A DNA stretch of 64,000 nt, taken from Ostreococcus lucimarinus (taxonomy: Eukaryota). This document shows, in pieces, positions 11,539 through 35,458 of this stretch. The position numbers were made by a program, and so were the translations under genes. The notes beneath the pieces were generated by a model that saw nothing but the letters and a program-made list of their open reading frames with translations, was not told where the DNA came from and searched no databases. Position 1 is the stretch's first letter, and every line of letters starts with the position of its first letter. The stretch is taken from the NCBI GenBank assembly GCA_000092065.1, contig CP000589.1; one strand, written 5' to 3'.

Positions 11539-11616
11539 CGCGCGCGCCGCGCGCGGCGGCGCGCGCCGCGCCGCGCGCGACGCGGCGCGACGCAGCGCGC
11601 CGCAGAGCGCGACGCG

Positions 11617-12498: not shown

Positions 12499-12540
12499 GT
12501 TACGGTAGAAGTATTAATAATGTACCATGCGAAACGATTA

Positions 12541-14775: not shown

Positions 14776-14808
<33 letters not shown>

Positions 14809-14841
14809 CGCGTCCTCGTCGCGCAATTCTTCGATGATCAT
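12541..14841 (-). CDS. MORN-repeat protein with two filamin/ABP280-type Ig repeats, 766 aa
   Basis: Minus-strand ATG at 14841 (MIIEELRDEDAG). There are many YxGxWxxDxxHGxG units, including YDGYWRDDKRHGRG, YEGEWEDDKTCGRG, YEGEWKNDHRWGWG, YDGEWRGDYRHGRG, YIGQWRDDLRHGRG, YQGEWCDGKRHGKG and YQGEWVRDERHGYG. These are followed by FGPGVVKARAGE...DNGDGTYVAYYTCTVAGAYQCEVII..SPYDVVVEP and a second repeat ending SPYALRVH. The tail is acidic and Lys-rich. Confidence 0.85.
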
Positions 14842-15243
14842 TTCCCTCGACCGAACGCGCGCGCGCGTCGCGCCGTCGCGTCGCCGTGTCGCGCGCGCGC
14901 CGCGTTCGCGCGCGCCGTCGTCTCGAGCGTTACGCGTGCGTTTCTCGCGCGCGCTCGACGAGTCGACGCCGTCGCGCGCGCGCGCCGTCGCGCGCGCGTC
15001 GCGCGTCGCGCGCCATCGACGCGAGAAATTTCGCGTCGTCGGTTCGTCGCGCGCCGTCGTCGCGCGCGGCGTCGCGCGCGCGCGACGGCGTCGATTCGTC
15101 GCGTCGCGTCGCGCGTCTCTCGCGCGTCGCCTCGACCGCTCGAGGTCGCGCGCGCGATCGAGCGAGGGGTCGTCACTCGCGCGCGCACGACGCGGCGACG
15201 TCGGCGCGCGGGCGAGCGCGCGCGCGCGATCGACGCGCGTCGC

Positions 15244-15263
15244 GGTCGGTCGGTCGGTCGGTC
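15244..15263. repeat. (GGTC)5 tetranucleotide microsatellite in a divergent promoter spacer
   Basis: Direct reading gives ggtcggtcggtcggtcggtc, immediately followed by a (CGCGA)-type pentamer run cgcgacgcgacgcgacgcgacgcgacg. Confidence 0.9.
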
Positions 15264-15266
15264 GCG

Positions 15267-15297
<31 letters not shown>

Positions 15298-15315
15298 AAC
15301 GCGACGAAAGTTTGG

Positions 15316-15345
15316 ATTGGATTGGATTGGACTGGTTTGGATTGG
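15316..15345. repeat. ATTGG pentanucleotide repeat (CCAAT on the minus strand), 4 copies
   Basis: The sequence is tttggATTGGATTGGATTGGactggtttggATTGGATTcg. It ends 9 nt before the ATG at 15354. Confidence 0.9.
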
Positions 15346-15353
15346 ATTCGACG

Positions 15354-16220
15354 ATGTCGGACGCGGTGGCGGGCGCGGATGAGACCGTGGGGCGACGGAC
15401 GACGCGACGGGGCGCGGACGGCGGCGCGGGGAGCGCGCAGGCGGCGGCGAGGCGGGAAACGATCGAGATGCGGACGGAGCGGTACGCGAATTGTAGGGTG
15501 CATAAGAATTGCGGGGACGCGTACTGCGAGTTTCGGAAGCTGGCGTGGGAGTTTCGAGCGGTGCGGGATCGAGCAGAGGCGAAAGGGTCGAAGGCGAAGG
15601 CGGTCGCGGAGGCGTGGGTGAGAGCGGCGATGAAGGAGGACGACGCGTGGAATGAGGCGGCGGAGAGGGAGCGGAAGAGGTTGCGGGCGGAGGCGGCAAA
15701 GGTGACGAAGGCGATGGAGCTCGCGGCGAGAAGCGCGCCGACGGAGCGAGAATTGAGACGCGCGCGGGCAAAAGAGTTGAAGCGTCTCGATGGAGACGCC
15801 GATGTGAGCGAAGAACCGTCGCGCGCGGGGACGCCACCGCCGGAGACGGAGGAGGAAAAGAAGACACGACAGGCGATGGAGATTTACGAGAAGCGCATGC
15901 AGCGCGTGCGCGACTTGACCAAACGCCGCGCCATGCTCTTGGCTCGCGCCAGTACGGTGGTGGTGCACCCGGGAACAAACAAGGTGATCGCGTTGTCAAC
16001 GCCCGAAGAGCTGTCAATCGTGCTGAAGATTGAGGCAAAGAAGAAGGCGCAGATGGAACAGAGGCGGCGTCAACGCGGCTTGAAGCGTCCGATGAAGGGT
16101 CCGAACATTGGCGACATGTACAGAATGCCGCGTCTTTTCGAGGAAGTCTGGCTGTATGAAGACAGCAACGTGGACGAACCGACTATTTCGGATTTGATTC
16201 ACATGAACATAGGAATGTAG
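15354..16220 (+). CDS. Hypothetical basic coiled-coil protein, 288 aa
   Basis: First ATG (15354) after the CG-only spacer. Amino-acid composition is diverse (TERYANCRVHKNCGDAYCEFRKLAWEF; C-terminal GPNIGDMYRMPRLFEEVWLYEDSN). Third codon positions are G/C-rich. No family recognised. Confidence 0.6.
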   Translation: MSDAVAGADETVGRRTTRRGADGGAGSAQAAARRETIEMRTERYANCRVHKNCGDAYCEFRKLAWEFRAVRDRAEAKGSKAKAVAEAWVRAAMKEDDAWNEAAERERKRLRAEAAKVTKAMELAARSAPTERELRRARAKELKRLDGDADVSEEPSRAGTPPPETEEEKKTRQAMEIYEKRMQRVRDLTKRRAMLLARASTVVVHPGTNKVIALSTPEELSIVLKIEAKKKAQMEQRRRQRGLKRPMKGPNIGDMYRMPRLFEEVWLYEDSNVDEPTISDLIHMNIGM

Positions 16221-16259
16221 CTCTCTACCAATACAATTAAAGAGAATTCTAAAGACTCT

Positions 16260-18359
16260 TCACGACGACTTTTCTCGCTCGACGATTTCGTCAATCTTAC
16301 GGAACTGCCACGGCCATCGCACGTTGTACAGGAACTGTCGCTGATCGAATCTATTGTCGTCCGGCGAGTAATTTTCAGCGTGATACGACGGCGTGAGCGT
16401 TGTCATCTTGTGCCTGTTGCACGAATAAAAGAAGAAAAATTTCTTCACCTTTTCGGCGATTTCGCTCGCAGAGAGCCCGCGATCCGCCCACTCCACGGTG
16501 TACAGACGCTTGAACATCGCCACTGGTCCAAGACGGGCGATTTTACGCAACCTTCCGTAAACACCGAGATCGTCGTAACTCATACCCATGTCCTCTTCGT
16601 CGGTTTGTACGTAGTCATCGCGAATAGGTTCGAGTTCCGCGGTAGGCGGCGCCTTTTCGACTTCTGCGAGCGTGGGATATCCCAAATTCATCGCCCCCCA
16701 GCGCAAGAACGATCGCAAATCGGCTTTGCTGATGCCGCCAATCGGATTTACGTCGGCACTCGAGCAATCGTACTTGGTCATGTATCCTCTCAATCCCTCG
16801 TCCACGTTCGCGCTCCCCAACACGAGCAAAAAGCCAGATTTACCTCGAACCCAAGGCAAAAGTTGCGCGAAAAGGAAGGACAAAACCATGCGCACGCGAG
16901 CTTGGATGTTTTGAAGCGCCAAGTTTTCCGCGTTTGACCCGCCGTCCACCTTAAATTTCGGCGTTTTCCCAGTCACCGTGGTGAAGAATGTTACGACGGC
17001 TGTCACCACGACGTCGATGGCGACGCTCAAATGCGAGGCGCCGATATCATTCGCGAGCGCCGCCGCGCGCGCGCGCGTCTCCGCGCTGCTGTTGTCCGTG
17101 CCAAGGTAAACAGTCGTAAATATCATCTTCGCCAACTCTTCGGCGCTCGGGATCGGGACGTCGCTCGCAAGTTGGGCGACGCGACGAATATCGTCGGCGA
17201 CAATCGCGTCCCCCGCGCTCGCCGCCCTGGTGACTAGTTGACACATGCTTCCGACGATGGCGGCCGTGCTGGCCGAGTCGGCGCCTCCGGAAAGCGGCAA
17301 AAAGTATCCGCTCGCGCCCGAGCGCCTGAGATAATCCCACAACCAGCACGCTGGCCCGAGCGCGATTTCCTCCTCGGGCGCATGAAACGAAATTGCCCGC
17401 TTCGGCGTCACCTTGAGATTCTCAGAAACGCACAGCTTGCCCGATACACGCACGGTAGGTATGCGCTTCACACTCGCCGCTTGTACACTCATCGATTGAA
17501 ACGCTCCTCGATGCGATTGAACTTCATCGAGATCCACCGTCGCGGCGACGACTTCGACGTCGCTCACGTCGAATTGTTTCCCTTGCGCCACGATTTCCCC
17601 ATTCACCGCGATGCACGCGCATCCATCGTAGTACAATCGCCCACCGTCACACCCGCGCTGATTGGAGTACAAATACACCCCACCCGCCTTCCCACTCGCG
17701 CTCTTGATCAAATTCATCCTGGCGTCCAACTTTCTCAATTGGTGGTGCGACCCGCTCCCGTTGCTCACGATTTCAATCCCATTCAACGCCAACGCGATGT
17801 GCGGCGCGTCGGGCGTCCACAACTCCTCACACGTCTCGCATCCTAATCCCGCGTCGTCGAACACCACCGCTCCGTCCCCGAACGCCACGCTCGTTTTCCC
17901 GTCCATTCCGAACCTCGCGCAACTCTCCGGCAGCGTAAACTCCTCCACTTCGTTCGCGCGCGTCCACGCCGTGAACCACCGCGACTCGCGATAATTCCCA
18001 TCATCCGCCAGCGCTCTCTTCGGTCGCACGAACGCGATCGCGCCGTCGACGATGATGACTCGACAATTATACCTCGCCCCGCGCGTCGTCGCCGGCGCGC
18101 CGACGTCCACCACCGCCCCGCGCATCAATTCCTTCTCCTCGCACAGCTTCGCGATCACCTCCCACGCGTGCGTCTCCGTGTCGCGCTCGTGAAAGTGATC
18201 CTCGCACCCGTACCCGCACGTCTCGAGCTCGGGCCCGACGCGATAGCGCGCGCCGAGTCTTTTCGCGCGCAGGATGCTCTCTCGAATCCGCGCGTAATTT
18301 CCATCAAAGTCCAGCGCCCACTGGTTCAGCGCGCAGCACGCGACGGCGACGACGCGCAT
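16260..18359 (-). CDS. NADSYN1: Glutamine-dependent NAD+ synthetase, 699 aa
   Basis: Minus-strand ATG at 18359 (MRVVAVACCALNQWALDFDGN). N-terminal CN-hydrolase domain (GPELETCGY, YNCRVII, CEELW) plus an ATP-pyrophosphatase domain (FLPLSGGADSAS, MTKYDCSSADVNPIGGISK). Confidence 0.93.
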   Translation of the reverse strand: MRVVAVACCALNQWALDFDGNYARIRESILRAKRLGARYRVGPELETCGYGCEDHFHERDTETHAWEVIAKLCEEKELMRGAVVDVGAPATTRGARYNCRVIIVDGAIAFVRPKRALADDGNYRESRWFTAWTRANEVEEFTLPESCARFGMDGKTSVAFGDGAVVFDDAGLGCETCEELWTPDAPHIALALNGIEIVSNGSGSHHQLRKLDARMNLIKSASGKAGGVYLYSNQRGCDGGRLYYDGCACIAVNGEIVAQGKQFDVSDVEVVAATVDLDEVQSHRGAFQSMSVQAASVKRIPTVRVSGKLCVSENLKVTPKRAISFHAPEEEIALGPACWLWDYLRRSGASGYFLPLSGGADSASTAAIVGSMCQLVTRAASAGDAIVADDIRRVAQLASDVPIPSAEELAKMIFTTVYLGTDNSSAETRARAAALANDIGASHLSVAIDVVVTAVVTFFTTVTGKTPKFKVDGGSNAENLALQNIQARVRMVLSFLFAQLLPWVRGKSGFLLVLGSANVDEGLRGYMTKYDCSSADVNPIGGISKADLRSFLRWGAMNLGYPTLAEVEKAPPTAELEPIRDDYVQTDEEDMGMSYDDLGVYGRLRKIARLGPVAMFKRLYTVEWADRGLSASEIAEKVKKFFFFYSCNRHKMTTLTPSYHAENYSPDDNRFDQRQFLYNVRWPWQFRKIDEIVEREKSS

Positions 18360-18582
18360 GTCGAACCTTTTCGCGCGTCGTTTCGCGCGCGATTCGGCGC
18401 GCGCCGTTCTCGCGCGTCGGCGCGCGGCGCGCGAATCGTCGAATTTCCGGGAAATCGCACCACCGGACGCGTCAGAGACCGACGCGCGTCGGACCGTCGG
18501 CGACGGACGCGCCGCGCGCGCGCGCGAGGCGTCGCGCATGACCCGCGCGCGCGCGCGGACGTGATCGAGCGACGCGCGCGCG

Positions 18583-20637
18583 ATGCGCCGCCGCGCTCGC
18601 GAACGCGACCGCGCGCGAAGCGCCGCGGCATCGCGCGTCGTCGCGCTCGCGCTCGCGCTCGCGGGCGCGGCGAACGCGCGCGCGCGCGCGGCGAACGCGG
18701 GCGGGGGCGGACGACCGTCGTTCGAGGCGGCGGTGCTGCCGCCGAGCGCGTTCGCGGGACGGACGAGCGCGGTGACGGTGCACGGTTTGAACTTTTTGCC
18801 GGGCCGGGACGCGGCGTGCGCGGATTGTAACGCGAACGGCGCCGCGACGACGCGGTGCGCGTTCGGAGACGCGAGGGATAACGGTGCGGTGAGCGCGTTC
18901 GATGGCTCGGACGCGAGCGCGTTTGAGTGCGCGGTGAACGCGGTGGACGGGGCGACGGGGACGCCGAGGCTGGGCTTCGCGCGCGGGAGTTGGAGCGCGA
19001 ACGGAGGGTACGATTGGGCGGTGTTCGGGGGCGAGAGCGGGGGGGGGGAGGATGGCAGCGTGCACTTCATGAAGATACCGAGCGTGGATGACGTCATCGC
19101 GAGCGTGGCACCGATGGGAATGCCGACGTACGCGACGGGTGGAGATTTCGCGCGAGGCGCGCTCGGGTGTTACTTTGAGTCCAGAAACGACGCGGGGTCG
19201 TGGGTGATGCGGGCGACGGGGACGGCGGCGGAGGCGGCCGAACACAGAGGGCTGTTTGTGAGCTCCGCGCTGTATCGATGCGAATCGCCGACGTACGAGA
19301 GGACGACGCCGTCCAAGGCGACGCTGGCGCGGTTCGCCGTCGGCGTCTTGGGAAACGACGGCGGCTCGCTGACGAATGTGGTGAGTTATAAGGAAAACTA
19401 CTGGCTCACCCCGGGCGCGGCGACCGTGAGTAGTGGGACGTACGGTCTCACTGGGGGAGAGACGATCAGCGTCGGAGTGAGCGATTCGGATGGAGATTGG
19501 GCAAACATCGGTTGTCTCGTGGGAACGACGCGCGTGAGCGCGCGGTCGGTGTCTACGTCCACGGTGACGTGCGTAGCCCCTGCGCGCGCGGAGGATGATA
19601 TTGCGAACGTGCCGATCATGGTTGGCGTACGGTATGCCGAACAGAGCGCGTCGGTCGTGACGAGATCGACGGACGTGACGACGTACTCGGGCGGTACGCC
19701 AAAGCCGACGAGCCCGTACGAACTCCTCAACGACGAGTTATTCCTATTCGGTCGCGGGAAACAAGTCATGCAAGTTTCTTCAGAAGAAGATTTCACGTGC
19801 GTGTTGACTACGGTTGTCGACAACGTGACTTCGGTGTTCAAATCGACGACGGCGAACGCGTCTCCCTTTGACCAAATCTTAAACTGTCTCCTTCCTTTGA
19901 ACGTCGAGGTGGGATTCGTGGCGATGGGCATCACCGGTGGGAAATACGAGGGCGTGACGCAAGTCATGTTCGTCGATCCACCGCGGGCGATCAGCGCGTC
20001 GCCAAGACGAAGCCCGAGCGAAGGCGGTGGCATCGTGTGGGTGTACGGCTCGAATTTGAACGCCGGCACCGATCCGTACTCGTCGTGCGTGTTCACTGCC
20101 GACGAGTCGTCGAGTTTCAAATGGGCAGTGGGAACCGGCGCTCGCGCGAGTTCCGCTCTCGTCGCGTGCGAGCTACCGCCCGCGGCGTCCGTGGTGGTGC
20201 AGAACAATCAGCGAACAACGGCGGTGGCCGTCGTCATGCGTCCTGCTTCGGCGAGCGCGAACGCCTTGGATTCGGGAGCTTCGATCGAGTATGCCGTAAA
20301 CGTCGCGTCGGCGTCCATATCTCCAGTGCGTGGATCGTTAGAAGGAGGGACACCCGTGCGCCTGGATCCGACTATGACGTGGGTCGTGTCGCAAAGCTCG
20401 TCGGGGACGCCAGATACGGATGATTTCGGCACGGGTGGGTGTCGCTTCAGCGCTGTCACCGTGTCCGCGCGCGTCGCCGACTCGGGAGCGATCGAGTGCG
20501 TGTCACCGTCGCTAGGTAACTTTCCGTACGCCAACGCACCGGTCGCGATCGCGGTGGATTGGCGAACGAGCTCGTCGCCCCTCGTCTTCTTTACGAGTAC
20601 GAACACGTTTCTCAACTTTTCATACGTTCGATTCTAG
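18583..20637 (+). CDS. Secreted protein with multiple IPT/TIG-like Ig domains, 684 aa
   Basis: ATG at 18583. Signal-peptide-like MRRRARERDRARSAAASRVVALALALAGAANA. Repeated IPT-type openings: LPPSAFAGRTSAVTVHGLNFLPG, SSGTYGLTGGETISVGVS, ISASPRRSPSEGGGIVWVYGSNLNAG, ISPVRGSLEGGTPVRL. Each is followed by C..G...V.A..VS..(T/A)..C..P type strands. Confidence 0.7.
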   Translation: MRRRARERDRARSAAASRVVALALALAGAANARARAANAGGGGRPSFEAAVLPPSAFAGRTSAVTVHGLNFLPGRDAACADCNANGAATTRCAFGDARDNGAVSAFDGSDASAFECAVNAVDGATGTPRLGFARGSWSANGGYDWAVFGGESGGGEDGSVHFMKIPSVDDVIASVAPMGMPTYATGGDFARGALGCYFESRNDAGSWVMRATGTAAEAAEHRGLFVSSALYRCESPTYERTTPSKATLARFAVGVLGNDGGSLTNVVSYKENYWLTPGAATVSSGTYGLTGGETISVGVSDSDGDWANIGCLVGTTRVSARSVSTSTVTCVAPARAEDDIANVPIMVGVRYAEQSASVVTRSTDVTTYSGGTPKPTSPYELLNDELFLFGRGKQVMQVSSEEDFTCVLTTVVDNVTSVFKSTTANASPFDQILNCLLPLNVEVGFVAMGITGGKYEGVTQVMFVDPPRAISASPRRSPSEGGGIVWVYGSNLNAGTDPYSSCVFTADESSSFKWAVGTGARASSALVACELPPAASVVVQNNQRTTAVAVVMRPASASANALDSGASIEYAVNVASASISPVRGSLEGGTPVRLDPTMTWVVSQSSSGTPDTDDFGTGGCRFSAVTVSARVADSGAIECVSPSLGNFPYANAPVAIAVDWRTSSSPLVFFTSTNTFLNFSYVRF

Positions 20638-20678
20638 CTCATCGATTAGCACATGTATTTCAGCAGCGTCTAGATCCA

Positions 20679-22313
20679 CTAAATCTCGCTATCGCTCGAG
20701 CTCAACGCACCCTTGGTCGTGATCGCAATCGCCAAAGCGCGCTTCAACGTCGCCACTTCAGCGTATCCAGGCTCATCGCCGTAGTCGTGCAAGAGTAACA
20801 AAAAGTCATCCGTCTTCATCGACATGATATATTGCTCGGAAAGCGCTTCATTGATCTGCACTCGAGGGTCGTTGAATGTGGGATCACCGCGCTTTCTCGC
20901 CGCGTGCTCGACAAAATCTACGACGACTTCGTCGAGAGTGACGTACGGCACGTTGAGAATGTTCATTTCGGAACGGAATTCAGACACATACATTTGGCCG
21001 ACGTACTTGAGCATCGCCGATGTCGTGCCGGGTGTGGAGACGACGTTTCTAGGATCGATACCACTCTTACGAATCGCGGCCGACTCCATATCGTCTGACT
21101 CGAATTGATTGTACTTGCCCGCAAGCGTCGTCGTCGTCGTCGTCCTCGTCTCCTTTGCGTCGAATTCAAACGAGGACGTCGAATCTTCTCTGGCGTTGAA
21201 CGAACTCGGCGTTCGCGCGTCTTCATAGATCGACTCGTCCACGGTGTTGTCAAACTCCCAATAATCACTCATTCCCGGCGTCGCTTGCGGCACGCGCGTC
21301 GACTTCGAGGACGCGGGCGTGTCCTCGAAAGGATTTCCTCGCGCCGCCGTCGACTTTTTCGCCGTCGATGTGAATCGCCACGCTTCGTCTCGCACCGCCG
21401 CAATTTCCGCGTCCGTGGGCGATGGATAATCGTCCATATCGTTGAACACGTGCTTACCGCGCCAGCTTCCGATCGCGCCCGCGGGTGTTGACGGATTCAC
21501 GTCGTTCGAACGCTTCTCCAAGCTCGGCAGCGGATCGAGCTCGACGACGTGCGGCTCGGGCGACGCCGCCATCGGCGACGCGCGCGCGAACGGATTCACC
21601 GGCACGATCGGCGACGGCATCTCATCGGGAATAACGCGCGGACCCAGCTTCGCCCGCCCCGCGTCGATGATATCCGCTTCGATCGCCCGCAGTTCCTTCG
21701 CGAACCCGTCCGCGAGCGTCTCGAGCAACGTCTCGCACTCGAGTTCGACGTCCACCTGATACTGCGCCTCCGTCTCGCTCGCGCGCTCGTACGCCGACCA
21801 CGCGCGAAACGCCACGAGCGCCGAGCACTTCCTCTCCACGCGCCCCTCCAAAATCACATCCTTCCTCGCGCACGACCGCAGCGTAATTTTTCCGTCTCTC
21901 CGCGTTCCGCCCGCGAGCGCCCACTGCGCCTCCCGCGTCACCGCCTTCGTCTCGAACCGCATCACCGTCTCCCCCTTGTGCACGGTGACGTACTTCCCAT
22001 AACACCCAGCGTCAAAATTCCCATCGCGCACGACGAACGCGTACTTCGCGCCCTCTTTACCGTTCCCTCCCTCGTCCCCGCGCGTTATTCGAACCGCCGT
22101 CAACCGCGGCGCCGTCGTCTCGTCCAACACCGCCTCCCCGAACGCCTCCCGCGCGCTCCTCGCGCCGCGCACTCGTCGCACGACGATCACGTCTCCATCG
22201 CTCAGCGGGTCCTCGCGCGCGCGCGCCTCCGCGTCGCGCCGCAGCGCCTCGAACGCGTCGTCGTTCTTCGCTCGACGCGCCGCCTCGCCGAGCTCCAGCG
22301 TCGCCTCGCCCAT
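20679..22313 (-). CDS. Hypothetical protein, 544 aa
   Basis: The track start at 22385 is GTG; the first ATG is 22313 (MGEATLELGE). It is a long ORF of diverse composition with an acidic/Ser-Thr middle and a structured-looking C-terminus (NILNVPYVTLDEVVVDFVEHAARKRGDP...DDFLLLLHDYGDEPGY). No family recognised. Confidence 0.6.
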   Translation of the reverse strand: MGEATLELGEAARRAKNDDAFEALRRDAEARAREDPLSDGDVIVVRRVRGARSAREAFGEAVLDETTAPRLTAVRITRGDEGGNGKEGAKYAFVVRDGNFDAGCYGKYVTVHKGETVMRFETKAVTREAQWALAGGTRRDGKITLRSCARKDVILEGRVERKCSALVAFRAWSAYERASETEAQYQVDVELECETLLETLADGFAKELRAIEADIIDAGRAKLGPRVIPDEMPSPIVPVNPFARASPMAASPEPHVVELDPLPSLEKRSNDVNPSTPAGAIGSWRGKHVFNDMDDYPSPTDAEIAAVRDEAWRFTSTAKKSTAARGNPFEDTPASSKSTRVPQATPGMSDYWEFDNTVDESIYEDARTPSSFNAREDSTSSFEFDAKETRTTTTTTLAGKYNQFESDDMESAAIRKSGIDPRNVVSTPGTTSAMLKYVGQMYVSEFRSEMNILNVPYVTLDEVVVDFVEHAARKRGDPTFNDPRVQINEALSEQYIMSMKTDDFLLLLHDYGDEPGYAEVATLKRALAIAITTKGALSSSDSEI

Positions 22314-22472
22314 CGCGCGCGTCGCGCCGTCGCGCGCGCCGGCGCGCGCGTTTCGTTTCTTCGCCGCGAGGTCTCGCGCGTCCACGGGCGCGTCGCGTCG
22401 CGCTCTGGCGCGCGATCGATCGCGCTGGATGATTTTGAATTCAAATCGAGCCGTCTCACTCGCGCGCGCGCG

Positions 22473-23426
22473 ATGCCGCGCGCGCGCCGCGCCGCGACGC
22501 GCGCCGCGGACGAGAGCGCGCGCGACGAAAAAAAATCACCGCCCGCTCGCGCGACGCGCGCGCGCGGCGCGACGCCGGCGCGCGCGCCGCCGCCGCCGCG
22601 ACCGACCGACCGACCGCGACGACGCGCGACGGCGACGACGACGACGACGCGCGCGACGCGCGCGCGGTCGAACGCGCGGTCGCGCGCGGTGCTCTTGGTC
22701 GCGCTCGCGGCGGCGCTCGCGCTCGGCGCGCTGCGCGCGCGACGCGCGACGACGACGGGACGCGGCGGCGGCGCGGACGCCGACGCGGCGGCGCGCGCGA
22801 CGACGCTGCGGCGCGCGCTCGACGCGGTGACGCGAAGCGCGAGCGCGGTGGAGTTCTTCGTCGAGGACGTGGCGACGCGACGGGCGTCGCACAAGGCGCC
22901 GACGGTGCTGGTGGCGGCGAACACGCCGGAGGGGTTGCGCGCGGCGCGGGCGAGTCTGGAGGCGACGCTGCGGAGGGGCGCGCGCGGGCGGTGCGCGATG
23001 ACGCTGGACTGCGCGGCGGCGAACCTGCGGGAGTTGGACGCGGACGAGGCGCGAGGGCGGTTGCAGCGCGCGCTGGCGCGACACTTGGCGGGATGTTCGC
23101 GCGACGAGGACGGCGCCGTCGTGGTGCTGCACGACGTCGCGAACATGTCGCCCGAGCACGTCCCGGCGTTGCTTCCCGCGCTGAGCGAAGACGGGGCGTA
23201 CGCGTACGATGGGGAATCGATCTCGACGACGAGAGGCGTGTTCGTTCTCACCGCGCACCTGCCGGCGACTCGAGCGGCGGCGGCGGCGCCGACGGACGAG
23301 AAGACGTTCACGAACGCGGCGAAGATGGCTTTATTGGACGCCATGCGCGCGAAAACTAGCGACGACGACGCCACGGCGTTGGCGTTTAGACGTAGAATAG
23401 ACGTCGCCGTTCCGGCGAACGCGTGA
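22473..23426 (+). CDS. Type II membrane protein with torsin/LAP1-like degenerate AAA+ luminal domain (tentative), 317 aa
   Basis: ATG at 22473 after the CG spacer. Basic N-terminus, then the TM segment AVLLVALAAALALGAL. VVVLHDVANMSPEHVPALLPALSEDGAYAYDGESISTTRGVFVLTAHL parallels the torsin block [44 protein letters not shown]. At the P-loop position PTVLVAANTPEGLR has no GxxGxGK. Third codon positions are almost all G/C in this frame. Confidence 0.6.
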   Translation: MPRARRAATRAADESARDEKKSPPARATRARGATPARAPPPPRPTDRPRRRATATTTTTRATRARSNARSRAVLLVALAAALALGALRARRATTTGRGGGADADAAARATTLRRALDAVTRSASAVEFFVEDVATRRASHKAPTVLVAANTPEGLRAARASLEATLRRGARGRCAMTLDCAAANLRELDADEARGRLQRALARHLAGCSRDEDGAVVVLHDVANMSPEHVPALLPALSEDGAYAYDGESISTTRGVFVLTAHLPATRAAAAAPTDEKTFTNAAKMALLDAMRAKTSDDDATALAFRRRIDVAVPANA

Positions 23427-23582
23427 CGGCGCGTAAAATGTAACCGTAACCGTTACTATTTTCAACCGCACGTACTGTAACTGTTTTCAAAAATCCGCGC
23501 GTCGACGCGGCACCGCGCGCGACGTCGCGGGAACGAACCGCGACGACGACGCGATCGTGACGTGCACGATCCATCGCCGTCG

Positions 23583-23660
23583 CGTCGGCGCGTCCATCAT
23601 CGCGGACGCGGCGCCGAACGAATCGGCGTTTTCGCGTCCCGAGTCACTCCGCCTTCGTCC
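23583..23660 (-). promoter_or_regulatory. SECIS element (form 2) in the SelW 3' UTR
   Basis: The minus-strand RNA contains GUGA (23647-23644), then an 11-nt 5' arm (CUCGGGACGCG), an AAAA bulge (23632-23629), and a mini-helix CGCCGA/UCGGCG with a UUCGU loop. The 3' arm CGCGUCC-G-CGA follows, then UGAU (23599-23596). Helix II has 7+3 Watson-Crick pairs with one bulged G, and tandem sheared A.G/G.A plus U.U are possible at the core. A short helix I pairs GGCG (23653-23650) with CGCC (23590-23587). The element starts about 60 nt after the stop codon. Confidence 0.75.
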
Positions 23661-23711
23661 CCGCGCGCCGCGCGTCGTCCCGCGACCGCGCGCGCGCCGC
23701 CGCGCGTTCGC

Positions 23712-23981
23712 CTACCGCGCGTTCTCGCCGAGCGCGCGCTCCACGGCGCTCAAGATGCGCTCAATCTTCACCGGATCGTCGACGTACCCGTCGCCTCGCG
23801 TCAACTTTGAGTGCACTAATTCGCCGGCGACTTTGACCTCGAGCGCGCCGCTCGTCGTCGGCGTCGGCTCCGCGGCCACGGAGGCTCGCGGAAATTTCGC
23901 CACGATGGCGCGCTCGATCGCCGTCGCGAAGCGCAGGTAGCCTCAGCCGCCTCAGTAAGTGATGTGTACGAGAGGATTCAT
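23712..23981 (-). CDS. SELENOW: Selenoprotein W (Rdx family) with two in-frame UGA (Sec) codons, 89 aa
   Basis: Manual minus-strand translation from ATG 23981 gives MNPLVHITY-U-GG-U-GYLRFATAIERAIVAKFPRASVAAEPTPTTSGALEVKVAGELVHSKLTRGDGYVDDPVKIERILSAVERALGENAR, ending at TAG 23712-23714. The TGAs are at 23952-23954 and 23943-23945 (TCA on the + strand). It aligns with vertebrate SelW (VVYCGAUGY ... [23 protein letters not shown]). The track shows only a GTG-started 63-aa fragment. Confidence 0.85.
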
Positions 23982-24129
23982 CACGACGAGCGTCGCGAGT
24001 CGCGAAGTGACGACGAGTCGAGCGAGGACTGAAGGAATGTCGGAATACCGATGTTCGCGCGCGTGTCTAATGATATGGTTTCTAAAGCTACTGCGGCGCT
24101 GGCTACGGTGCGCGCGGCGCGCGCGGTGG

Positions 24130-26157
24130 TCAGAGAATGACGACGCGTTTAGCTTCTTTGCGCCTGGACGGCCTGGACGGCGCCGTCGCGACGCGAACGT
24201 CGTTGTGAGGAATGACCAAGGCGACCGTGTCTTCGAGCGCGCGGTTCGCCGTTTCGAGGACGGCGTACTTGACGTAAATCGCACCCACGACGCACACGAC
24301 GGCGAAGAAGACGTGGATGGCAGACGCGCCGAAGGCGTCGAGGGCGAGTTCGTACGCGAACGTCTCTACGAAGACGTACGACCAGTACAGCGTGAGCGTG
24401 AGCGAGATTGCCGTACCGCGCGCGTGCTGAGGGAACAGCTCAGCGGCGATGAGCATCGGTATCGCCGCCATGCCAAGTCCGTAGAAGAAGGCAAATGAGA
24501 TGATGGCGACGTCGAGCGCGTCCCGCGCCGAGCCCAAGGCGTAGCCGGCGGCGGCGCTCGCCATGGCGAGGTTGCAGAGACACATACCCGCTAAAGATGC
24601 CAGCATGCACGGCTTCCGCCCCATGTAATCTACCATTCTCGAACACACCATGATGCCGAACAAGAGCGTGACGACGTATGCGATCCGAGTCTCCGTCGAC
24701 GACGGCACCGCGCCGTTCGACGGAATTTCGCCGTCGTCGTGCACGGCGAGCGACAGTCCGCCGAGCTGTTGGATCCCGACGAGCGCACAAGCGATCATCA
24801 TCGATCTCGATAGATGCGAGTCAAGCAATAGATCGTACCACCTGAACGCGGCAAACGCGCCGGGTGGTGAAGTCTTTGCATTTTCGCGAGCGACGATGTT
24901 CGCGACATCCTCCATTGCCTCGCGTTCCTTATACGCCCCTCGAAGCGTTGTGAACGCTTCCACCGCCTCGATGCGCATTTCTCGCGCCAGCAACCATCTT
25001 GGAGATTCCACTACGCATATAATGGCGATGATCAGAGCGATGACGTTGAACATAGCGCACACGCCGGCTAAGTGTCTCCAGTGCATCGTCACCGGACTCA
25101 ACGGGCTCAGATACATGAACAACACACCCTTTACGATGGCCAAATTAGGCAAGATCGCGTGCGCACCGCGCATAGATTTTGAACTAGCCTCAATGAGTAA
25201 CAAGGGCGCCGCAGTGGTGACAATACCCACAGAAATGCCCGCGAGCACCCTCCCAACCATCGCCGTCGTCGAAAACGCAGGCGCGCAAGCCGCCAGCGCC
25301 CACCCTAAGATCGCCGGTATCGTCGCCGCAACAACCGTTCGGCGCCTACCAAACCTATCGCACCCCCAACCCGCGCGCGCTGCGCCCACAATCGCCCCCA
25401 GGAAGAGCGCCGCTTGTAAAGTGGCGATTTCGTCCTCGTTCGCGCCATCCGTCCCGCACGCCGCCGTCTCGCCACCGCACGACATCGTCTTCCTAGCCGC
25501 AAACGGAAACCCGATAGCCAACCCCACGGTGAAGCACGTGAGCGATACCGATGCCGTCGCCGCCCACGTGCGCCAGGTTTTCGGCACCATCGCCGCGACG
25601 ACGCTCGATGTCGAGTGCAGGTTCGCTCCCGACACCCGAGCGCTCACGCCGACGCCGCGTTCAACTTCATCCAGCGTCCGCAGCGCGTCCCGCGTCAACC
25701 GCGTGTACCCTCGCGCGCTCGTGCTCTCCACGAACATCCGATTCGCGCGTGCATCGCCGGCGTCATCGTCATCGCTCGACGTCGTCGACGACTCGCCGCC
25801 GTCAACACCCCGCGATTTTTTGCTCGACGACAGCGTCGTGCGCGCGTCGTCCGCGTGCGTCGTCCCGGTGTCGCTCGTCGCGTACCCTCGATCATTTCGC
25901 AGTAATTCCTCGCGTTCGCCGTCGTTGGCGCGTCCGACTTTCGGCGCGCCGCTGAAGAGCGTCTTCAACATCCCAGAGACTGAAGCGCGCGGGGACGCGC
26001 TGGAATCTCGACTCGCGCTCGCGCGACGCGCGCGTCTCTCGCGCCTGCGCGACTCGCGACCGTCGCGACGATCATCTCTCGCTTTCTTCTCGGCGCGCGC
26101 CTTCTGGAACAGGCGCGCCTTGTTGGCGAGCTCGAGTTCCTCCTTGCTCGGCGGCAT
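24130..26157 (-). CDS. Major facilitator superfamily sugar-porter-type transporter with long disordered N-terminus, 675 aa
   Basis: ATG at 26157 (MPPSKEELE) is the first start downstream of the upstream gene's stop (26249). Motifs include GWGCDRFGRRR and VESPRWLL (sugar-porter PESPRW-like), plus AAELFPQHARG, with about 12 hydrophobic spans. Confidence 0.85.
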   Translation of the reverse strand: MPPSKEELELANKARLFQKARAEKKARDDRRDGRESRRRERRARRASASRDSSASPRASVSGMLKTLFSGAPKVGRANDGEREELLRNDRGYATSDTGTTHADDARTTLSSSKKSRGVDGGESSTTSSDDDDAGDARANRMFVESTSARGYTRLTRDALRTLDEVERGVGVSARVSGANLHSTSSVVAAMVPKTWRTWAATASVSLTCFTVGLAIGFPFAARKTMSCGGETAACGTDGANEDEIATLQAALFLGAIVGAARAGWGCDRFGRRRTVVAATIPAILGWALAACAPAFSTTAMVGRVLAGISVGIVTTAAPLLLIEASSKSMRGAHAILPNLAIVKGVLFMYLSPLSPVTMHWRHLAGVCAMFNVIALIIAIICVVESPRWLLAREMRIEAVEAFTTLRGAYKEREAMEDVANIVARENAKTSPPGAFAAFRWYDLLLDSHLSRSMMIACALVGIQQLGGLSLAVHDDGEIPSNGAVPSSTETRIAYVVTLLFGIMVCSRMVDYMGRKPCMLASLAGMCLCNLAMASAAAGYALGSARDALDVAIISFAFFYGLGMAAIPMLIAAELFPQHARGTAISLTLTLYWSYVFVETFAYELALDAFGASAIHVFFAVVCVVGAIYVKYAVLETANRALEDTVALVIPHNDVRVATAPSRPSRRKEAKRVVIL

Positions 26158-26248
26158 CGCCGCGCGAGGCGCGAACTGAGGACGACGCGAGCGAACGGGC
26201 TGTCGTATTATTCTCGAGCTATCGAAATCTAACTTTCTATCGAGCGCG

Positions 26249-27973
26249 TCATCGCTCCTTCTTACTCTCGTTTTCGGTCGCATCGTCCTTCTTACTCTCG
26301 TCTTCGGCGCCGGCGTCGGCGACGTAGCCGAATTCATTCGCGCGAGTTTCGTCGACGCGATAGACGCGTCTCTGATACAAGAATAAGAGGAAGATGACGT
26401 CGTCTCTGAAGACGGAAATGCGGTGAAGTGTGGGCATCTTGATGACGAAGGCGAATAAGTCGTCGATGATGGTGTTTAGGAACTTGTAGCCCATCTGTTT
26501 CCACGGCATAGCGGCGACGCTCTTGAGTTTGTAGTTGACGTACAGCTGAGGCGTCATGCTGATGAAACCAAAAGTATAGACAGCCCCGACGAGCGTACTC
26601 AGGACGAACGACCACCAACCTTTGTGTTCGTGCGTGCGCAGGCTGTACACGGCGTATACTCCCACGAGTGGATATAGCGCGTACGACAAATAGCGCATGG
26701 CGTCCGCGTCGTGTCGAGCGGTGTCGCTCTTGAGCGCGCTCGCCTTGTCGGCGACGCGAAGCCGCGGAAAGCGTCCGTCTCGATCAACAGAGACGTCCAT
26801 CGCGCGCGTCACCTTCCAAAACTCAATAACGACGCCCAAACCACTGGAAATAAGTATCATCCACGACGTTTCGTTGTCGCACAGGTACAAAAAGATGACG
26901 AGCTGACAAAAGGCGTTCAAAAGAACGCTTCGAGCGGACAATCCTTCGAGACTTTTGCGATTTCGCCAAAACTGCACGTCGTGTTTGAATGCAAAGAAAT
27001 CAAATATCGTGTGTAGCAAACTCACAACTGTCGTCACCGCGAGCAACGTCGGATTTCCTTCGAGAAACACGCGCTTCATGTTGTCCGCGTCGTGTTCTCC
27101 CGCCGCGCCGAACGCGCGTTGCGTCGACCACGTCTGCTCCATGGACTCTTCCATCTGCCAACGAAACTGAGAAATCGTCTCGAGGTTCAAGTTTATCTTC
27201 ATCTCGCGCGCGCTCGTTTCGTTCAGCTCGCGCAGATGGCTCTTGATGATCCAAAACTCGTTAAAATACACCGTGGGATAGTATCCCGACCGCCGCTCGT
27301 CCGAAAATCGCATTCGCCTCGCCAGGATGTCTGGAATCGTCGCCCCGCGATACGCCGCGAAATCATCCACCACGGTCAACGTCGCGTTGGGTTTATAATA
27401 CGCCTGATAATACTCCATCCCATCTTCCAACCCCTCCGTCCCGTCCTCGCGCGGCTCCGCCCGCGCCGAATCCTCGCCCAAGAGCTTCCTCCTTCGCGCG
27501 ACTCTTCGTCTTCGCCAAATCGTCGCGTCGAAAGACACTCGCAAAACGTCCCCATCGTCGTACCCCTCGTCCGCCGGATCCAGCGACGCGCCTAAACGCG
27601 AAACGATCGCGTGCAATTTCACGCTCACGTTTCTCGCCACCGCGTCCACGAGCGCGACCCCGAGATCCAACTCGACGTCGCGCGTCGCCGACGCCAGCGG
27701 CGCCGTCGTCCCCCACAGCGGCGTCTCCGCGTGAAAATTCACGCTCGACGCCTCGTAATCCTCCGCGAGCGCGTGCACGCGCACGTCAACGACTTCGTCC
27801 CGGCGCCACAGGTTCCGACAGACGTCCGCGTACGCCGTCGTCGTCGTCGTCGTCGTCGCGACGTCTTGGAACGCTTTCGGCGCGGAAACCGTCGTCAAGC
27901 TTCGCGTCAGGCGCACGGCGAAGCCGTACATCGCCGCGAGGCGCGCGATCTTGAGCGCGCTCTGCGCTCGCGA

Positions 27974-28007
<34 letters not shown>

Positions 28008-28018
28008 TCGGTCGACAT
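26249..28018 (-). CDS. CLPTM1 (cleft lip and palate transmembrane protein 1-like) family membrane protein, 589 aa
   Basis: The track start at 28036 is GTG; ATG is at 28018 (MSTDAAPAP). CLPTM1-type core: YYPTVYFNEFW, GNPTLLAVTTVVSLLHTIFDFFAFKHDVQFWRNRKSLEGLSARSV, MPWKQMGYKFLNTIIDDLFAFVIKMPTLHRISVFRDDVIFLLFLYQRRVYRVD. Confidence 0.85.
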
Positions 28019-28039
28019 CGCGGCGCGGCGCGGCACACG

Positions 28040-28480
28040 ATGACGCCGCTCGAAGACGAAATCGCGTCGAGAATCGCGCGACAGCGCGCGCTGGCGCGCG
28101 CGAACGCCGCGGAGTTGGCGTGCGCGACGCTCGCGTTGACGCCGCGCGCGCGGCTGCGCGAGGCGCGGGCCGCGGCGGAAGAGATGGCGAACGCGTCGGC
28201 GGACGCGGCGACCGTTAGAGCGCGCGTTCGCGATTGGCGCGACGCGCAGAGGCGCGCCGAGGACGCGCGCGCGAAGGAAACGACGCGAGCGATGGACAGT
28301 GAACGACGCGCGCGCGCGCGGGAGGCGACGGTGGCGCGAGAGGCGCGAGAGACGAGGATCAGAGCGCGCGCGGCGTCGAAGGCGCGGCGACGCGCCGAAG
28401 CGGAGGCGGCGAACGCGCGAGCGGCGAACGCGCGAGCGACGAGTCGCGCGGCGAACGAGGCGATGATTTCGTTATTTCAG
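28040..28480 (+). CDS. Hypothetical Arg/Ala-rich coiled-coil protein, exon 1 (147 codons)
   Basis: ATG at 28040 (MTPLEDEIASR). The exon ends ...ISLFQ with a complete codon CAG, immediately followed by GTGCGC. Confidence 0.6.
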
Positions 28481-28565
28481 GTGCGCATCGCGACGCGCGA
28501 ATGGGTCGGTGAACGACGGAGGGACTGACGACGCGCTCGTTTCGTTTGGTTCGCGCGCGAGGCAG
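28481..28565 (+). other. Spliceosomal intron (85 nt, GT..AG, phase 0)
   Basis: 5' splice site is CAG|GTGCGC at 28481. The branch-like ACTGAC is at 28523-28528. The 3' splice site GGCAG|GCT ends at 28565. Splicing joins track ORF 27611..28528 in frame to ORF 28509..28898, which has no ATG anywhere and so cannot stand alone. Confidence 0.6.
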
Positions 28566-28898
28566 GCTCGAGACGCGCAAACGGTACGACGACGCCGCGA
28601 CGCCATCGCGGCGTTAGACGTGGAAATAGCCGAGCGCGAATTGCGATTGGAAACTGCGACGGCGCGCGCGCGCCCGTTCGTGCACCGCTCGAGAGAACGC
28701 TTGTCGAGTTGGACGGAGGCCGCCGCGCGCCGTTTCGTGGCGACGACGCTCGAGCGCGAGCGCGTCGAGGATCTCGACGTTTTCGCGCGCGCCGCGCGTC
28801 AGGGGTGGGTCTTAGACGCGCACAAGTACCGTCGCACCGCGCCGCGTTGGCGCGTGTTAGATCCTCGATGCGGCGGCGTCGTCATTCGCGAGTATTAA
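28566..28898 (+). CDS. Hypothetical protein, exon 2 (110 codons + stop)
   Basis: Begins ARDAQTVRRRRDAIAALDVEIAERELRLE and ends ...RWRVLDPRCGGVVIREY with a stop at 28896-28898. It has no internal Met. Confidence 0.6.
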   Translation, partial: ARDAQTVRRRRDAIAALDVEIAERELRLETATARARPFVHRSRERLSSWTEAAARRFVATTLERERVEDLDVFARAARQGWVLDAHKYRRTAPRWRVLDPRCGGVVIREY

Positions 28899-28985
28899 GT
28901 CGCGCGTCTGGGTAGTTAGAGTAGCTCGTCCCGAACAACAGTCGTTGATCGTCCGACTTCAGACGCCGCCTCTCGCCTCGCCACG

Positions 28986-31820
28986 ATGCGCGCGAACCGC
29001 GACCGCGCGTTTCACGGCATACACTCCGACGCCACCGTCGCCGGAAGCGACGGCGCCGCGCCGCGTCGTCGCGACGAGCGCGAGCTCACCGAGCTCGACG
29101 TCTTCGGGACGCTCAAGGAAAAGCACCACAAAAACACCGTGAAAACGATGCGCGCGATGTACGCGGACGTCCGCGAGCGACGGCGAAGGGCGATGGAAGA
29201 TTTAACGCCGCTCCAACGCCGGGCGCGGGCGAGCGGAGGCGTGAATCCGTTCGATTGGTCGGATGGACACGTGGGACACTTTTACGAGTTCATGGTGGCG
29301 GAGAACGCGGCGAGCGAACGAGGAGCGAAGTCGCGCGCCATGGTGTTCGAGAGACAGGATGAGTCGGGACAAAACGTGGTGGAGGAATTATTCGATAGTT
29401 TTAGGGCGGACTACGCGGATCGGTGGCGGGCGGAGGTGGTGTGCGGGATCGACGCGAGCGCGGGGGCGTGCGAGCGGTATAGGGACGCCGCGGCGGAGGC
29501 GTGCGAAGCGTTGCTGGGAGACGACGACGCACGAGAGATGGGGGCGTGCGAGACGTATTTGCACACGTATGGGATCGTGCACGAGCATTGGCACGTGGAA
29601 GATTACGTGCAGGCCAGGAATACGTTGGGATACTCAAAGCCAAAGATGGAGGCGCCAAAGCGATATCCGGCGAATTTGTGGGGAGACTCGGTCTTGGCGC
29701 GCTCGAGAAACGGGGAATGTTCGGCCTGTAGTACTCAAGTGATCACTCTTCAAGGATATGTCGACGTGGATGTGGGGACGACCTATTCTTTAGGCGCCGA
29801 GCGAGAGGACAAGTGGGTGTTCGACGCCGAGCGATGGGCGCACGACGTACCAATGACAAAGTTCAAAATTGCGAAGACGTGTTGCACGAACGCGCAATTC
29901 GCGTGCTTTGTCGAAACAGGAGGTTATGCCGACAGAAGTCTTTGGAGTCACGAAGGGTGGCGATGGGTGGAAAAACGACGCGCCGCGGGTGAATTGTTGG
30001 CGCCTCTCGGTTGGAAAGTGTCGCCGTGCGTGAAATTCTTAAGCAACGGCGAAGAAGCACCCGCGTGTGAGAGTTGGCGATGTGCGTACTTTGATGAAGC
30101 GCCACGCGCACTACATCCGCAGCACCCTGTGTGCCACGTGTCGTGGTACGAAGCCGAGGCGTATTGTAACTGGATTGGCGCACGTTTACCGACTGAGGCG
30201 GAATGGGAAGCAGCCGCGAGAACGACGACGAGTTGGTCGACGGACAAACAAACCACAAAGCGTCGCACGTATCCGTGGGGTGAAGAATCTCCTTCAGAAG
30301 ACAAAGCAAATCTTGGTGGACACTTTGGAGGTACTATTGATGTCAGTGCTTTGGGTGCGGGCGATAGCGCGCACGGTTGCCGACAGATGTTGGGCAACGT
30401 TTGGGAATGGACGGCGTCGGCTTTCCTGCCTTTTCCCGGTTTTCAAATGGACTACCCGTATCGCGAAAACAGCTGTCCGTGGTTTGGGTATAGAAAAGTC
30501 GTCAAAGGCGGGTGTTGGGCGACGAGCGCGCCCATCGCGCGTGCGGCATATAGACACTCGTTTTGGCCGCACATGCACAACACGTTCAGTGGATTTCGCG
30601 CCGCTATCGGTGGCTCGCAAAAGCGCGCGCTTTGCATTCTTCCGCAAAAAATACAGAGCGGCGCAAAATGTGGCAACGTGGTCACGATGGAAAGAATTTC
30701 TTCGCATCTCGAGAAGAATCACATCATGAGCATCACGCGTTCGATTTTTGATCTGCCGCAGTCAAAGGAGGATTTGGCGAACATAATACACGCGATGAAC
30801 GTCGATTTGATCATCGTCTTGCACGCTTTCAAGTGCGGTGCCGTGATCGATACCGTACAGGCATATAAAGACATGCTCCCGCCTATCGTTCTAGTGCTCG
30901 GCGGCACCGACGTCAACGTGGATTCTCGAAAGTCTGCGCTCGCTGAGGAACAATTTCGCCGACGCGTTGACGTCGCGACAAAAGTTGTCTCGTTTTCCTT
31001 GTCCATGATAGAAGCCGCACCCAAAGGTGCGTTGAAATTTATCGAGTCGGACTCGACATCTAAAACCAAACTGATACCGCAAGGAGTCATGCTCCCGAGC
31101 ACGTTGAAGGCTTCAAAGCGCAAAAGGCTTGCAGATGAAACTGTGGAAACACCCGGCGAGCTTCAAGGCACCTCGCGGCCTGCGGACCTATCGATACCGA
31201 TCATGTTCCTACCTGCGGGATTACGCCCAGTCAAGGACGTGTGCTTCATAAACGACGCATTGACTGCGTATAACTCAAATGGAATCAAAGCACATCTGAC
31301 TGTGTGCGGCCCTTTCCTCGATTCGGCGTACGCGAAACGCGTGCGATGTCAGTTTGACGGTCGTTCCGATTGTACCTTGCTAGCAGGTGTCGATCGCGCG
31401 ACGCTTGTAAGGTTCATCGGCGAGGCGAAAGTTTTGTTGAACACCTCGGTATCGGAAGGTCAAAGCGGAACCATCGCTGAAGCGATGATGGTGGGGACTT
31501 TAGTCTTCGCGCGAGATATTCCAGGCAATCGTCAGCTCTTTGAGTTGTGCGAAGCGAGAGCGCTCGCAGCACTCGGTCCTGCGACGATAAAGGAGATGAA
31601 GGGCGATGGATGGGAGGTTCACCCGGTGGGAGTACTATTCTCGACTCCAGAGGGTTGCATGCGCGCTTTCGAAGCATTAGGTCTCGAAAGAGAGTCGACC
31701 GAAGACGTGGATGTATCGTTGATTAGACTCCGCGCGCGCGAAGGCGTCGCCGAACTGTCATTGAACGAAGCGAAGCGTTGGACGGAAATTTTAGACGAAA
31801 TCACCGCGCACGGTTCATGA
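28986..31820 (+). CDS. Fusion protein: DinB-like + FGE-sulfatase domains (EgtB/OvoA/SenA-type sulfoxide/selenoxide synthase) joined to a C-terminal GT-B glycosyltransferase (SenB-like?), 944 aa
   Basis: ATG at 28986, followed by one uninterrupted ORF. DinB-type metal motifs are FDWSDGHVGHFYEF and GIVHEHWHVEDY (29580-29594). FGE/EgtB C-domain motifs are HPVCHVSWYEAEAYCNWIGARLPTEAEWEAAAR, YPWGE, GNVWEWTASAFLPFPGF, VKGGCWATS and NTFSGFRAA. The GT-B half has CILPQKIQSGAKCGNVVTMERI (N-terminal) and LNTSVSEGQSGTIAEAMMVGTLVFARDIPGN (C-terminal). Confidence 0.85.
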   Translation: MRANRDRAFHGIHSDATVAGSDGAAPRRRDERELTELDVFGTLKEKHHKNTVKTMRAMYADVRERRRRAMEDLTPLQRRARASGGVNPFDWSDGHVGHFYEFMVAENAASERGAKSRAMVFERQDESGQNVVEELFDSFRADYADRWRAEVVCGIDASAGACERYRDAAAEACEALLGDDDAREMGACETYLHTYGIVHEHWHVEDYVQARNTLGYSKPKMEAPKRYPANLWGDSVLARSRNGECSACSTQVITLQGYVDVDVGTTYSLGAEREDKWVFDAERWAHDVPMTKFKIAKTCCTNAQFACFVETGGYADRSLWSHEGWRWVEKRRAAGELLAPLGWKVSPCVKFLSNGEEAPACESWRCAYFDEAPRALHPQHPVCHVSWYEAEAYCNWIGARLPTEAEWEAAARTTTSWSTDKQTTKRRTYPWGEESPSEDKANLGGHFGGTIDVSALGAGDSAHGCRQMLGNVWEWTASAFLPFPGFQMDYPYRENSCPWFGYRKVVKGGCWATSAPIARAAYRHSFWPHMHNTFSGFRAAIGGSQKRALCILPQKIQSGAKCGNVVTMERISSHLEKNHIMSITRSIFDLPQSKEDLANIIHAMNVDLIIVLHAFKCGAVIDTVQAYKDMLPPIVLVLGGTDVNVDSRKSALAEEQFRRRVDVATKVVSFSLSMIEAAPKGALKFIESDSTSKTKLIPQGVMLPSTLKASKRKRLADETVETPGELQGTSRPADLSIPIMFLPAGLRPVKDVCFINDALTAYNSNGIKAHLTVCGPFLDSAYAKRVRCQFDGRSDCTLLAGVDRATLVRFIGEAKVLLNTSVSEGQSGTIAEAMMVGTLVFARDIPGNRQLFELCEARALAALGPATIKEMKGDGWEVHPVGVLFSTPEGCMRAFEALGLERESTEDVDVSLIRLRAREGVAELSLNEAKRWTEILDEITAHGS

Positions 31821-31938
31821 AGTAACTTATCATTTATTATTTCACGTATTATTTCCTCACCTAGTGCATCGCCGCGGCTAAGCAACCGAAGTTCACGACC
31901 GCCATTTCGTATTATTCGTTCGCTGACTATTTCTCTCT

Positions 31939-34725: not shown

Positions 34726-34772
34726 GTCGACGCGCGTCGATCGGTGTCGTCGGCACACGACCGCGCGCGGCG

Positions 34773-35360
34773 ATGCGACGATGCGCGCGACGCGCGCTCG
34801 AGCGCGCGACGCGCGCGGCGACGGCGACGACGCGTCGAGGACGCGCGTCGTCGTCGGGCGACGCGCCGTCGAAGGCGACGAAGGCGACGACGACGACGCG
34901 CGACGACGGCGGGACGGAGAATCCGCTGCGCGGGGTGATGTTCCCGTGGGAGCGCGCGGTGCTGCACAGCGAGCGCTGGGCGGGGGAGCTGAAGCCGTGG
35001 CAGAAGGCGTACTGGGCGGCGTTCGCGCTGGGGTGCGCGTTCGTCGTCGGCGCGCGGGCGAAGCGGTATCACGACGATCAGGAGAGCGAAGAAGCGCGAC
35101 GGCGAACGATGGAGGCGAATAAACGCGCGCTGCGGGGCGCGCTCGAGGGGAGGAGTTTCATCGGCGCGAGCGGGGAGGACGAGGAGGACGAGGACGAAGA
35201 CCCGTTCGATGGGATGAGCCCGGAGGAAATCGAGGCGTTGGTGAAACGAGAGGCGGGACCGAGCGGGGACGTGTACGACGGGATGACGCCGGAGGAGATT
35301 AACGAGCACGAGGAAAAGTTTCGCGGGAAGGGAAATTTGACGTGGAAGACGAAGGCGTGA
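34773..35360 (+). CDS. Hypothetical small single-TM protein with acidic tail, 195 aa
   Basis: ATG at 34773. The candidate TM segment is WQKAYWAAFALGCAFVVGA. The acidic stretch is GEDEEDEDEDPFDGMSPEEIEALV. No family recognised. Confidence 0.55.
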   Translation: MRRCARRALERATRAATATTRRGRASSSGDAPSKATKATTTTRDDGGTENPLRGVMFPWERAVLHSERWAGELKPWQKAYWAAFALGCAFVVGARAKRYHDDQESEEARRRTMEANKRALRGALEGRSFIGASGEDEEDEDEDPFDGMSPEEIEALVKREAGPSGDVYDGMTPEEINEHEEKFRGKGNLTWKTKA

Positions 35361-35458
35361 GCGCGACGCGGGTGTTTCGCTCGCGCGGCTGGTGTGTTGT
35401 AATCTAGTTCTATTTCTATTCTAATCTAAACGCGGCGCGCGCTGTGCGCGCGCTGAAT

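Follow-up and report, generated by a model that had tools for sequence, protein, structure and literature searches.

The minus strand of a 64,000-nucleotide stretch of Ostreococcus lucimarinus DNA (the window, meaning that stretch at its full length) very probably carries a nuclear gene encoding this species' second paralogue of selenoprotein W, 'Wb' (here SelW b), a member of the Rdx family with the redox motif U10-G-G-U13 in which both UGA codons are decoded as selenocysteine (Sec) via one SECIS element. The two-Sec SelW b of O. lucimarinus is already published, in 2007 and again in 2020, with its sequence. The passages on selenoprotein W in Lobanov et al. (2007, Genome Biol 8:R198, PMC2375036) assign two SelW genes to O. 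lucimarinus, noting that the extra SelW-like protein "contained two predicted Sec residues". The entry 'O. lucimarinus Wb' of Additional file 2 (PMC2375036) reads MNP-L-VHITY UGGUGY LRFATAIER / AIVAK FPRASV AAEPTPTTSGAL EVKVAG / ELVHSKLTRGDGYVDDPVKIERILSAVERALGENAR, and over these three alignment blocks it is identical to our reading of the window at 89/89 residues. The presence of the locus in this file answers a question left open by the preliminary description of this DNA, namely whether it figured in published Ostreococcus selenoproteome lists. The same passages report the two-Sec SelW paralogue for O. lucimarinus without listing it for O. tauri, and the 75Se labelling they describe was run on O. 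tauri and D. discoideum, not on O. lucimarinus (Lobanov et al. 2007, PMC2375036). A passage in a later study likewise refers to "UxxU-type SELENOW ... from Ostreococcus lucimarinus" (Jiang et al. 2020, BMC Genomics 21:699, PMC7539508). The passages of the two papers that deal with SelW b give no orthologues from other Ostreococcus lineages and make no mention of an experimental test of the protein.

The reading frame and its two in-frame TGA codons lie as follows.

23712..23981, minus strand: gene SelW b (two-Sec selenoprotein W paralogue), coded in one exon of 89 codons followed by a TAG stop.
23954..23952, minus strand: first TGA, in frame at codon 10; a predicted Sec where the CxxU motif has its Cys.
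23945..23943, minus strand: second TGA, in frame at codon 13; a predicted Sec where SelW proteins canonically have it.

Translation of the minus strand from 23981 to 23712 gives MNPLVHITY*GG*GYLRFATAIERAIVAKFPRASVAAEPTPTTSGALEVKVAGELVHSKLTRGDGYVDDPVKIERILSAVERALGENAR* (the asterisks stand for TGA, TGA and TAG), running from an ATG at 23981 to a TAG at 23714..23712; with the codons written out, the N-terminus is MNPLVHITY-TGA-GG-TGA-GYLRF. The mechanical list of open reading frames holds only a 63-aa piece with a GTG start at this locus (23712..23903), just as the preliminary description had said. Because the frame contains no Met codon between the second TGA and the TAG, an Rdx domain translated from an ATG requires that both TGAs be read through. 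TGA is an ordinary stop in this genome, terminating the MFS-type gene upstream and serving as the true stop of the SelW gene itself in three orthologues, and its recoding therefore needs a SECIS.

Public gene calls at the SelW b locus, which come from hundreds of environmental contigs, are all fragments of 41-71 aa with GTG or similar starts. One JGI fragment entry bears the name 'selT/selW/selH-like putative selenoprotein', and the full-length two-Sec protein is without a record in public protein collections. The gene looks hidden because the public protein sets hold only these truncated calls.

For the Pfam and structure comparisons, U was written as C in the SelW b protein. The 89-aa reading matches Pfam Rdx (PF10262) over residues 5-65 with an E-value of 1.8e-13 and a score of 50.9 bits, against a cut-off of 22.6. 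The 63-aa fragment scores 23.1 bits, barely at the cut-off, and over half of the family signal therefore comes from the 26 N-terminal residues. Of the solved structures, mouse selenoprotein W (NMR structure 2NPB) matches best, with an E-value of 1.3e-13; it aligns collinearly, residues 4-86 on 4-86, and places positions 10 and 13 of SelW b in register with C10 and U13 of SelW; the next match, C17orf37/MIEN1, is far weaker (E=3.5e-4). SelW b also groups with SelW in the published alignment, where all other SelW proteins have Cys at position 10. The U-G-G-U motif at residues 10-13 is accordingly a variant of CxxU. Three claims of the preliminary description find agreement here: the 89-aa reading from the ATG at 23981 is upheld by the translation and by the Rdx and mouse SelW matches, the position-for-position match to vertebrate SelW by the collinearity with 2NPB, and the assignment of the TGAs to CxxU residues 10 and 13 by the frame, the published alignment and the 2NPB register. 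A Pfam scan at E<=1 returned Rdx only, with no peroxiredoxin-like (AhpC/TSA-type) domain. On sequence grounds, SelW b is a full-length member of SelW/Rdx and not of SelL, and homology to 2NPB predicts for it a thioredoxin-like beta-alpha-beta-beta-beta-alpha fold.

The genes around SelW b provide the context in which orthologous loci were recognised, and a further gene ties the window to a sequenced strain.

24130..26337, minus strand: MFS-type gene, a 735-aa ORF, upstream of SelW b.
ORF ending at 23426, plus strand: convergent gene, the downstream neighbour of SelW b.
1331..3889: dynamin-like protein of 853 aa, an exact match to ABO97831.1/XP_001419538.1 of O. lucimarinus CCE9901.

No tRNA genes, hence no tRNA-Sec, were found in 1..64000. 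One scan of marine JGI metagenome contigs yielded five loci, designated L001-L005. In each of them the SelW gene is preceded, on its own strand, by the MFS gene and followed by the same convergent gene, and these shared flanking genes identify them as orthologous loci. A scan of viral contigs with the SelW orthologue alignment gave no match. With the two Sec positions set aside, protein identity to SelW b across the five loci ranges from 73 to 100%: L001 is nearly identical to the window, the L002 protein is 91% identical, and the L003-L005 proteins (contigs Ga0181582_10024926, Ga0163111_10021418 and MDTE01080013.1) are 73-79% identical, the proteins of their neighbouring genes being 54-61% identical. 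To judge from these sequences, L003-L005 belong to one or more other Ostreococcus-like lineages.

The ATG, the eight codons that follow it and the block TGA GGC GGC TGA GGC TAC are kept in 5/5 loci, and no locus (0/5) has either TGA replaced by a sense codon or a different stop. Between the window and L003-L005, dS is approximately 1, and dN/dS is 0.195 over codons 1-15 and 0.17-0.20 over codons 16-87. Purifying selection therefore acts equally on the stretch 5' of the TGAs and on the rest of the gene. The preliminary description had judged the sequence flanking both TGAs to be of coding type, which a dN/dS of about 0.2 on either side across the five loci confirms, and it had proposed conservation of the TGAs and the nine preceding codons in relatives as a check; that conservation is what the five metagenome loci display.

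These observations bear on two readings in which no Sec is inserted at one or both codons. If the TGAs were true stops, the locus would be a decaying SelW pseudogene or would encode a product of 63-76 aa with a non-ATG start and no redox motif. The use of TGA as a normal stop in neighbouring genes is in keeping with such a reading, as is the fact that automatic gene callers give only 41-71 aa fragments with GTG or similar starts. A fragment of this kind, however, would be without strand beta-1 and the active site, and no Met codon lies beyond the TGAs from which it could begin. The TGAs and their nine preceding codons are moreover kept in five syntenic loci at a dS of about 1, with a dN/dS of about 0.2 on both sides, and the 3' UTR contains a conserved SECIS whose pairs have changed on both sides (see below). 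We consider true stops highly improbable, and conservation and selection across the TGAs exclude a pseudogene or truncated product in practice. Alternatively, one or both TGAs could be sequencing or assembly errors for TGC or TGT, each a single base away, in which case the protein would be an ordinary CxxU or CxxC SelW like the others of the published alignment, all with Cys at position 10. Against this, TGA stands at both positions in five independent metagenome contigs from different samples, and the reference genome has been read in this way in two independent published analyses. The five contigs and two published readings effectively refute an error, to which we attach next to no probability.

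Two further features of the orthologous loci concern the sequence outside the reading frame. A 14-nt motif, CACTTCGCGACTCG, located 15-28 nt upstream of the SelW b ATG (23996..24009, minus strand), is identical in the window, L001, L002, L004 and L005, while the remaining 5' flank has diverged; its counterpart in L003 is CACTTCTCGACGCT. The motif may be a core-promoter, transcription-start or 5' UTR element. In L002, the 3' UTR starts with a tandem, partial copy of the final ~25 SelW codons (L002:986-1075; …DDPVKMERVARAAERALGANAA*), which sits between the stop and the SECIS and places the SECIS ~85 nt further from the stop.

The reading of both TGAs as Sec codons draws additional weight from the 3' UTR, where the following elements are located.

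23427..23711, minus strand: convergent spacer of 285 bp containing the SelW b 3' UTR and the SECIS.
23581..23662, minus strand: type-II SECIS, identified by folding, scan and orthologue comparison.
23647..23596, minus strand: core-to-core segment of the SECIS, with GUGA at the 5' end and UGAU at the 3' end.
Roughly 23662..23648 paired with 23595..23581, minus strand: SECIS helix I, from the minimum free energy (MFE) fold.

From 23647 to 23596, the SECIS sequence is GUGA-C / UCGGGACGCG / AAAA / CGCCGA-UUCGU-UCGGCG / C / CGCGUCC-G-CGA / UGAU. Helix II comprises 10 bp with one bulged 3' nucleotide, followed by the unpaired AAAA and a 6-bp mini-stem (CGCCGA/UCGGCG), and the internal loop contains a non-Watson-Crick quartet of U.U, G.A, A.G and C.U. 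The unconstrained MFE fold of the 82-nt segment 23662..23581 is exactly a type-II SECIS, and the four orthologous segments folded in the same manner also adopt the SECIS shape. The SECIS is the MFE structure for the isolated 82-nt segment only, the fold of the whole 152-nt 3' UTR being GC-rich and uninformative (z=+1.5). The GUGA core begins 64 nt past the SelW b stop, and 307 and 298 nt downstream of the two UGAs. The fold and the pair table thereby bear out the preliminary description, which had placed a SECIS about 60 nt past the stop; its remark that the 285-bp convergent spacer is unusually long also stands, the other convergent spacers in the window measuring 39-118 bp in a rough map of ATG-started ORFs. 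Both the G preceding the UGA and the presence of a mini-stem agree with Lobanov et al. (2007, PMC2375036), who describe them as typical of SECIS elements in Ostreococcus.

We also searched both strands of the whole window with a home-made SECIS scanner (RUGA, AA located 9-13 nt into a closed helix II, and a 3' GA), and the SelW b SECIS ranks first among the matches. Ten dinucleotide shuffles gave 0-3 matches each, with about 0.5 per shuffle at equal or better energy, from which we calculate by our own arithmetic a chance of ~0.001 that such an element would be placed in the 285-nt 3' UTR. The loose pattern is not rare in sequence of 61% GC, with two other weak matches in the window against the 0-3 per shuffle. 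These hairpins (21965..21898 and 50406..50350, minus strand) are weaker, overlap long ORFs and fall within the shuffle expectation, and we dismiss them as chance. Rfam returned no SECIS, and no family at all, for the whole window at gathering thresholds, and a cmscan of 23350..24050 (701 nt) at E<=10 gave no SECIS family but only chance bacterial sRNA matches. Since fold, scan and orthologue comparison agree, we take the Rfam result as insensitivity of the models to the SelW b SECIS and not as absence of the element.

The orthologue comparison used pairs tabulated from a hand-made structural alignment that was verified against the sequences; a MAFFT alignment of the five SECIS segments was left out because internal CGCGCG repeats put it out of register. 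The SECIS of L003-L005 has the same architecture, with GUGA/CGAC as the core. Helix II keeps its lower 3 bp and its bulge position, whereas in its upper part both sides differ between the window and L003-L005 at 4/7 positions (G-C/C-G, G-C/U-A, A-U/C-G and C-G/G-C). The mini-stem, 6 bp in the window, extends to 8-9 bp of different sequence in L003-L005. This double-change evidence is real but shallow, coming from two sequence groups and representing at most a few independent events.

From the conserved TGAs and the SECIS, we infer that Sec is inserted at both codons and that the product would form a diselenide and act on a cellular substrate. A single mRNA would carry both UGAs ~300 nt upstream of the one type-II SECIS, whose GUGA/UGAU kink-turn core would, following the established eukaryotic Sec pathway, bind SBP2 and recruit the eEFSec:Sec-tRNA complex. 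Both UGAs would then be decoded as Sec through this single SECIS, by analogy with the UxxU motif of SelL and with SelP. If the thioredoxin-like fold suggested by SelW homology is adopted, the UxxU motif would lie where strand beta-1 ends and helix alpha-1 starts, and its two selenols, two glycines apart, could close an intramolecular Sec10-Sec13 diselenide. The product would cycle between the di-selenol and this diselenide, or a selenenic acid, or a selenenylsulfide with the substrate, and would act as an oxidoreductase of the SelW type, much lower in redox potential and more nucleophilic than CxxU forms. With two UGAs three codons apart, decoding may be inefficient, such that some of the product ends early or carries Cys at one site.

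In another reading, the gene is real and read through but the two residues are not both Sec in vivo, for example with Cys at one UGA when selenium is scarce; the motif would then often be CxxU or UxxC, and the diselenide would not be the working form. The mammalian Sec machinery can insert Cys at UGA under selenium deficiency, which as general knowledge lends the idea some plausibility. If Cys sufficed at position 10, however, a change from TGA to TGY would be expected there, and 0/5 orthologues have made it at a dS of about 1. We judge this account unlikely.

Natural diselenide (UxxU) motifs are very rare, and a soluble 9.5-kDa carrier is convenient for the study of selenium redox chemistry and of close-spaced UGA recoding, a case already made for SelW b by the 2007 and 2020 publications. 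To this we add that several environmental Ostreococcus lineages, at synonymous saturation, have kept the UxxU motif and the SECIS, that helix II has undergone double changes and, as a practical point, that public protein sets still lack the gene or hold it in truncated form. These additions strengthen the published two-Sec prediction and leave it unchanged. More tentatively, UxxU may mark a diselenide-type SelW paralogue that is selectively maintained across Ostreococcus lineages and is not a one-off; the motif is conserved at a dS of about 1, and the paralogue might have a function distinct from that of the canonical CEKUNY-type SelW, such as a very low-potential reductant tied to surface or high-light ecotypes. 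Were such a paralogue indeed maintained, it would offer a natural system in which to study how one SECIS serves two UGAs three codons apart.

SelW b shares its size, the Rdx domain, Sec13, a 3' UTR SECIS and the conserved blocks EV.V.G.L.HSK..GDGYVD with the CxxU-type SELENOW of vertebrates and Chlamydomonas. It differs from them at residue 10, which is Sec in SelW b and Cys in the others. With Sec at this position, the resolving residue is predicted to be selenium as well, and the oxidised form would therefore be a diselenide and not a selenenylsulfide. The other published two-Sec SelW is that of amphioxus (Branchiostoma floridae), reported by Jiang et al. (2012, BMC Genomics 13:446, PMC3473315) and described as UxxU by Jiang et al. 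(2020, PMC7539508); unlike SelW b, it belongs to an animal lineage, and its motif is therefore presumably an independent Cys-to-Sec change. UxxU has also been reported for a bacterial Prx-like family from ocean metagenomes. The preliminary description named SelL alone as a UxxU family, but the motif is also found in SelW of O. lucimarinus and amphioxus and in the bacterial family. SelL, which Shchedrina and colleagues are said to have described in 2007, reportedly has a UxxU motif decoded with one SECIS, and an intramolecular diselenide is said to have been envisaged for it. SelW b, whose two TGAs lie three codons from each other and whose 3' UTR holds one SECIS-like element, resembles SelL in its UxxU motif and single SECIS; SelL, however, is peroxiredoxin-like, whereas SelW b matches Rdx only. 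By analogy, SelW b works like SelL at the level of the motif, without being a member of the SelL family.
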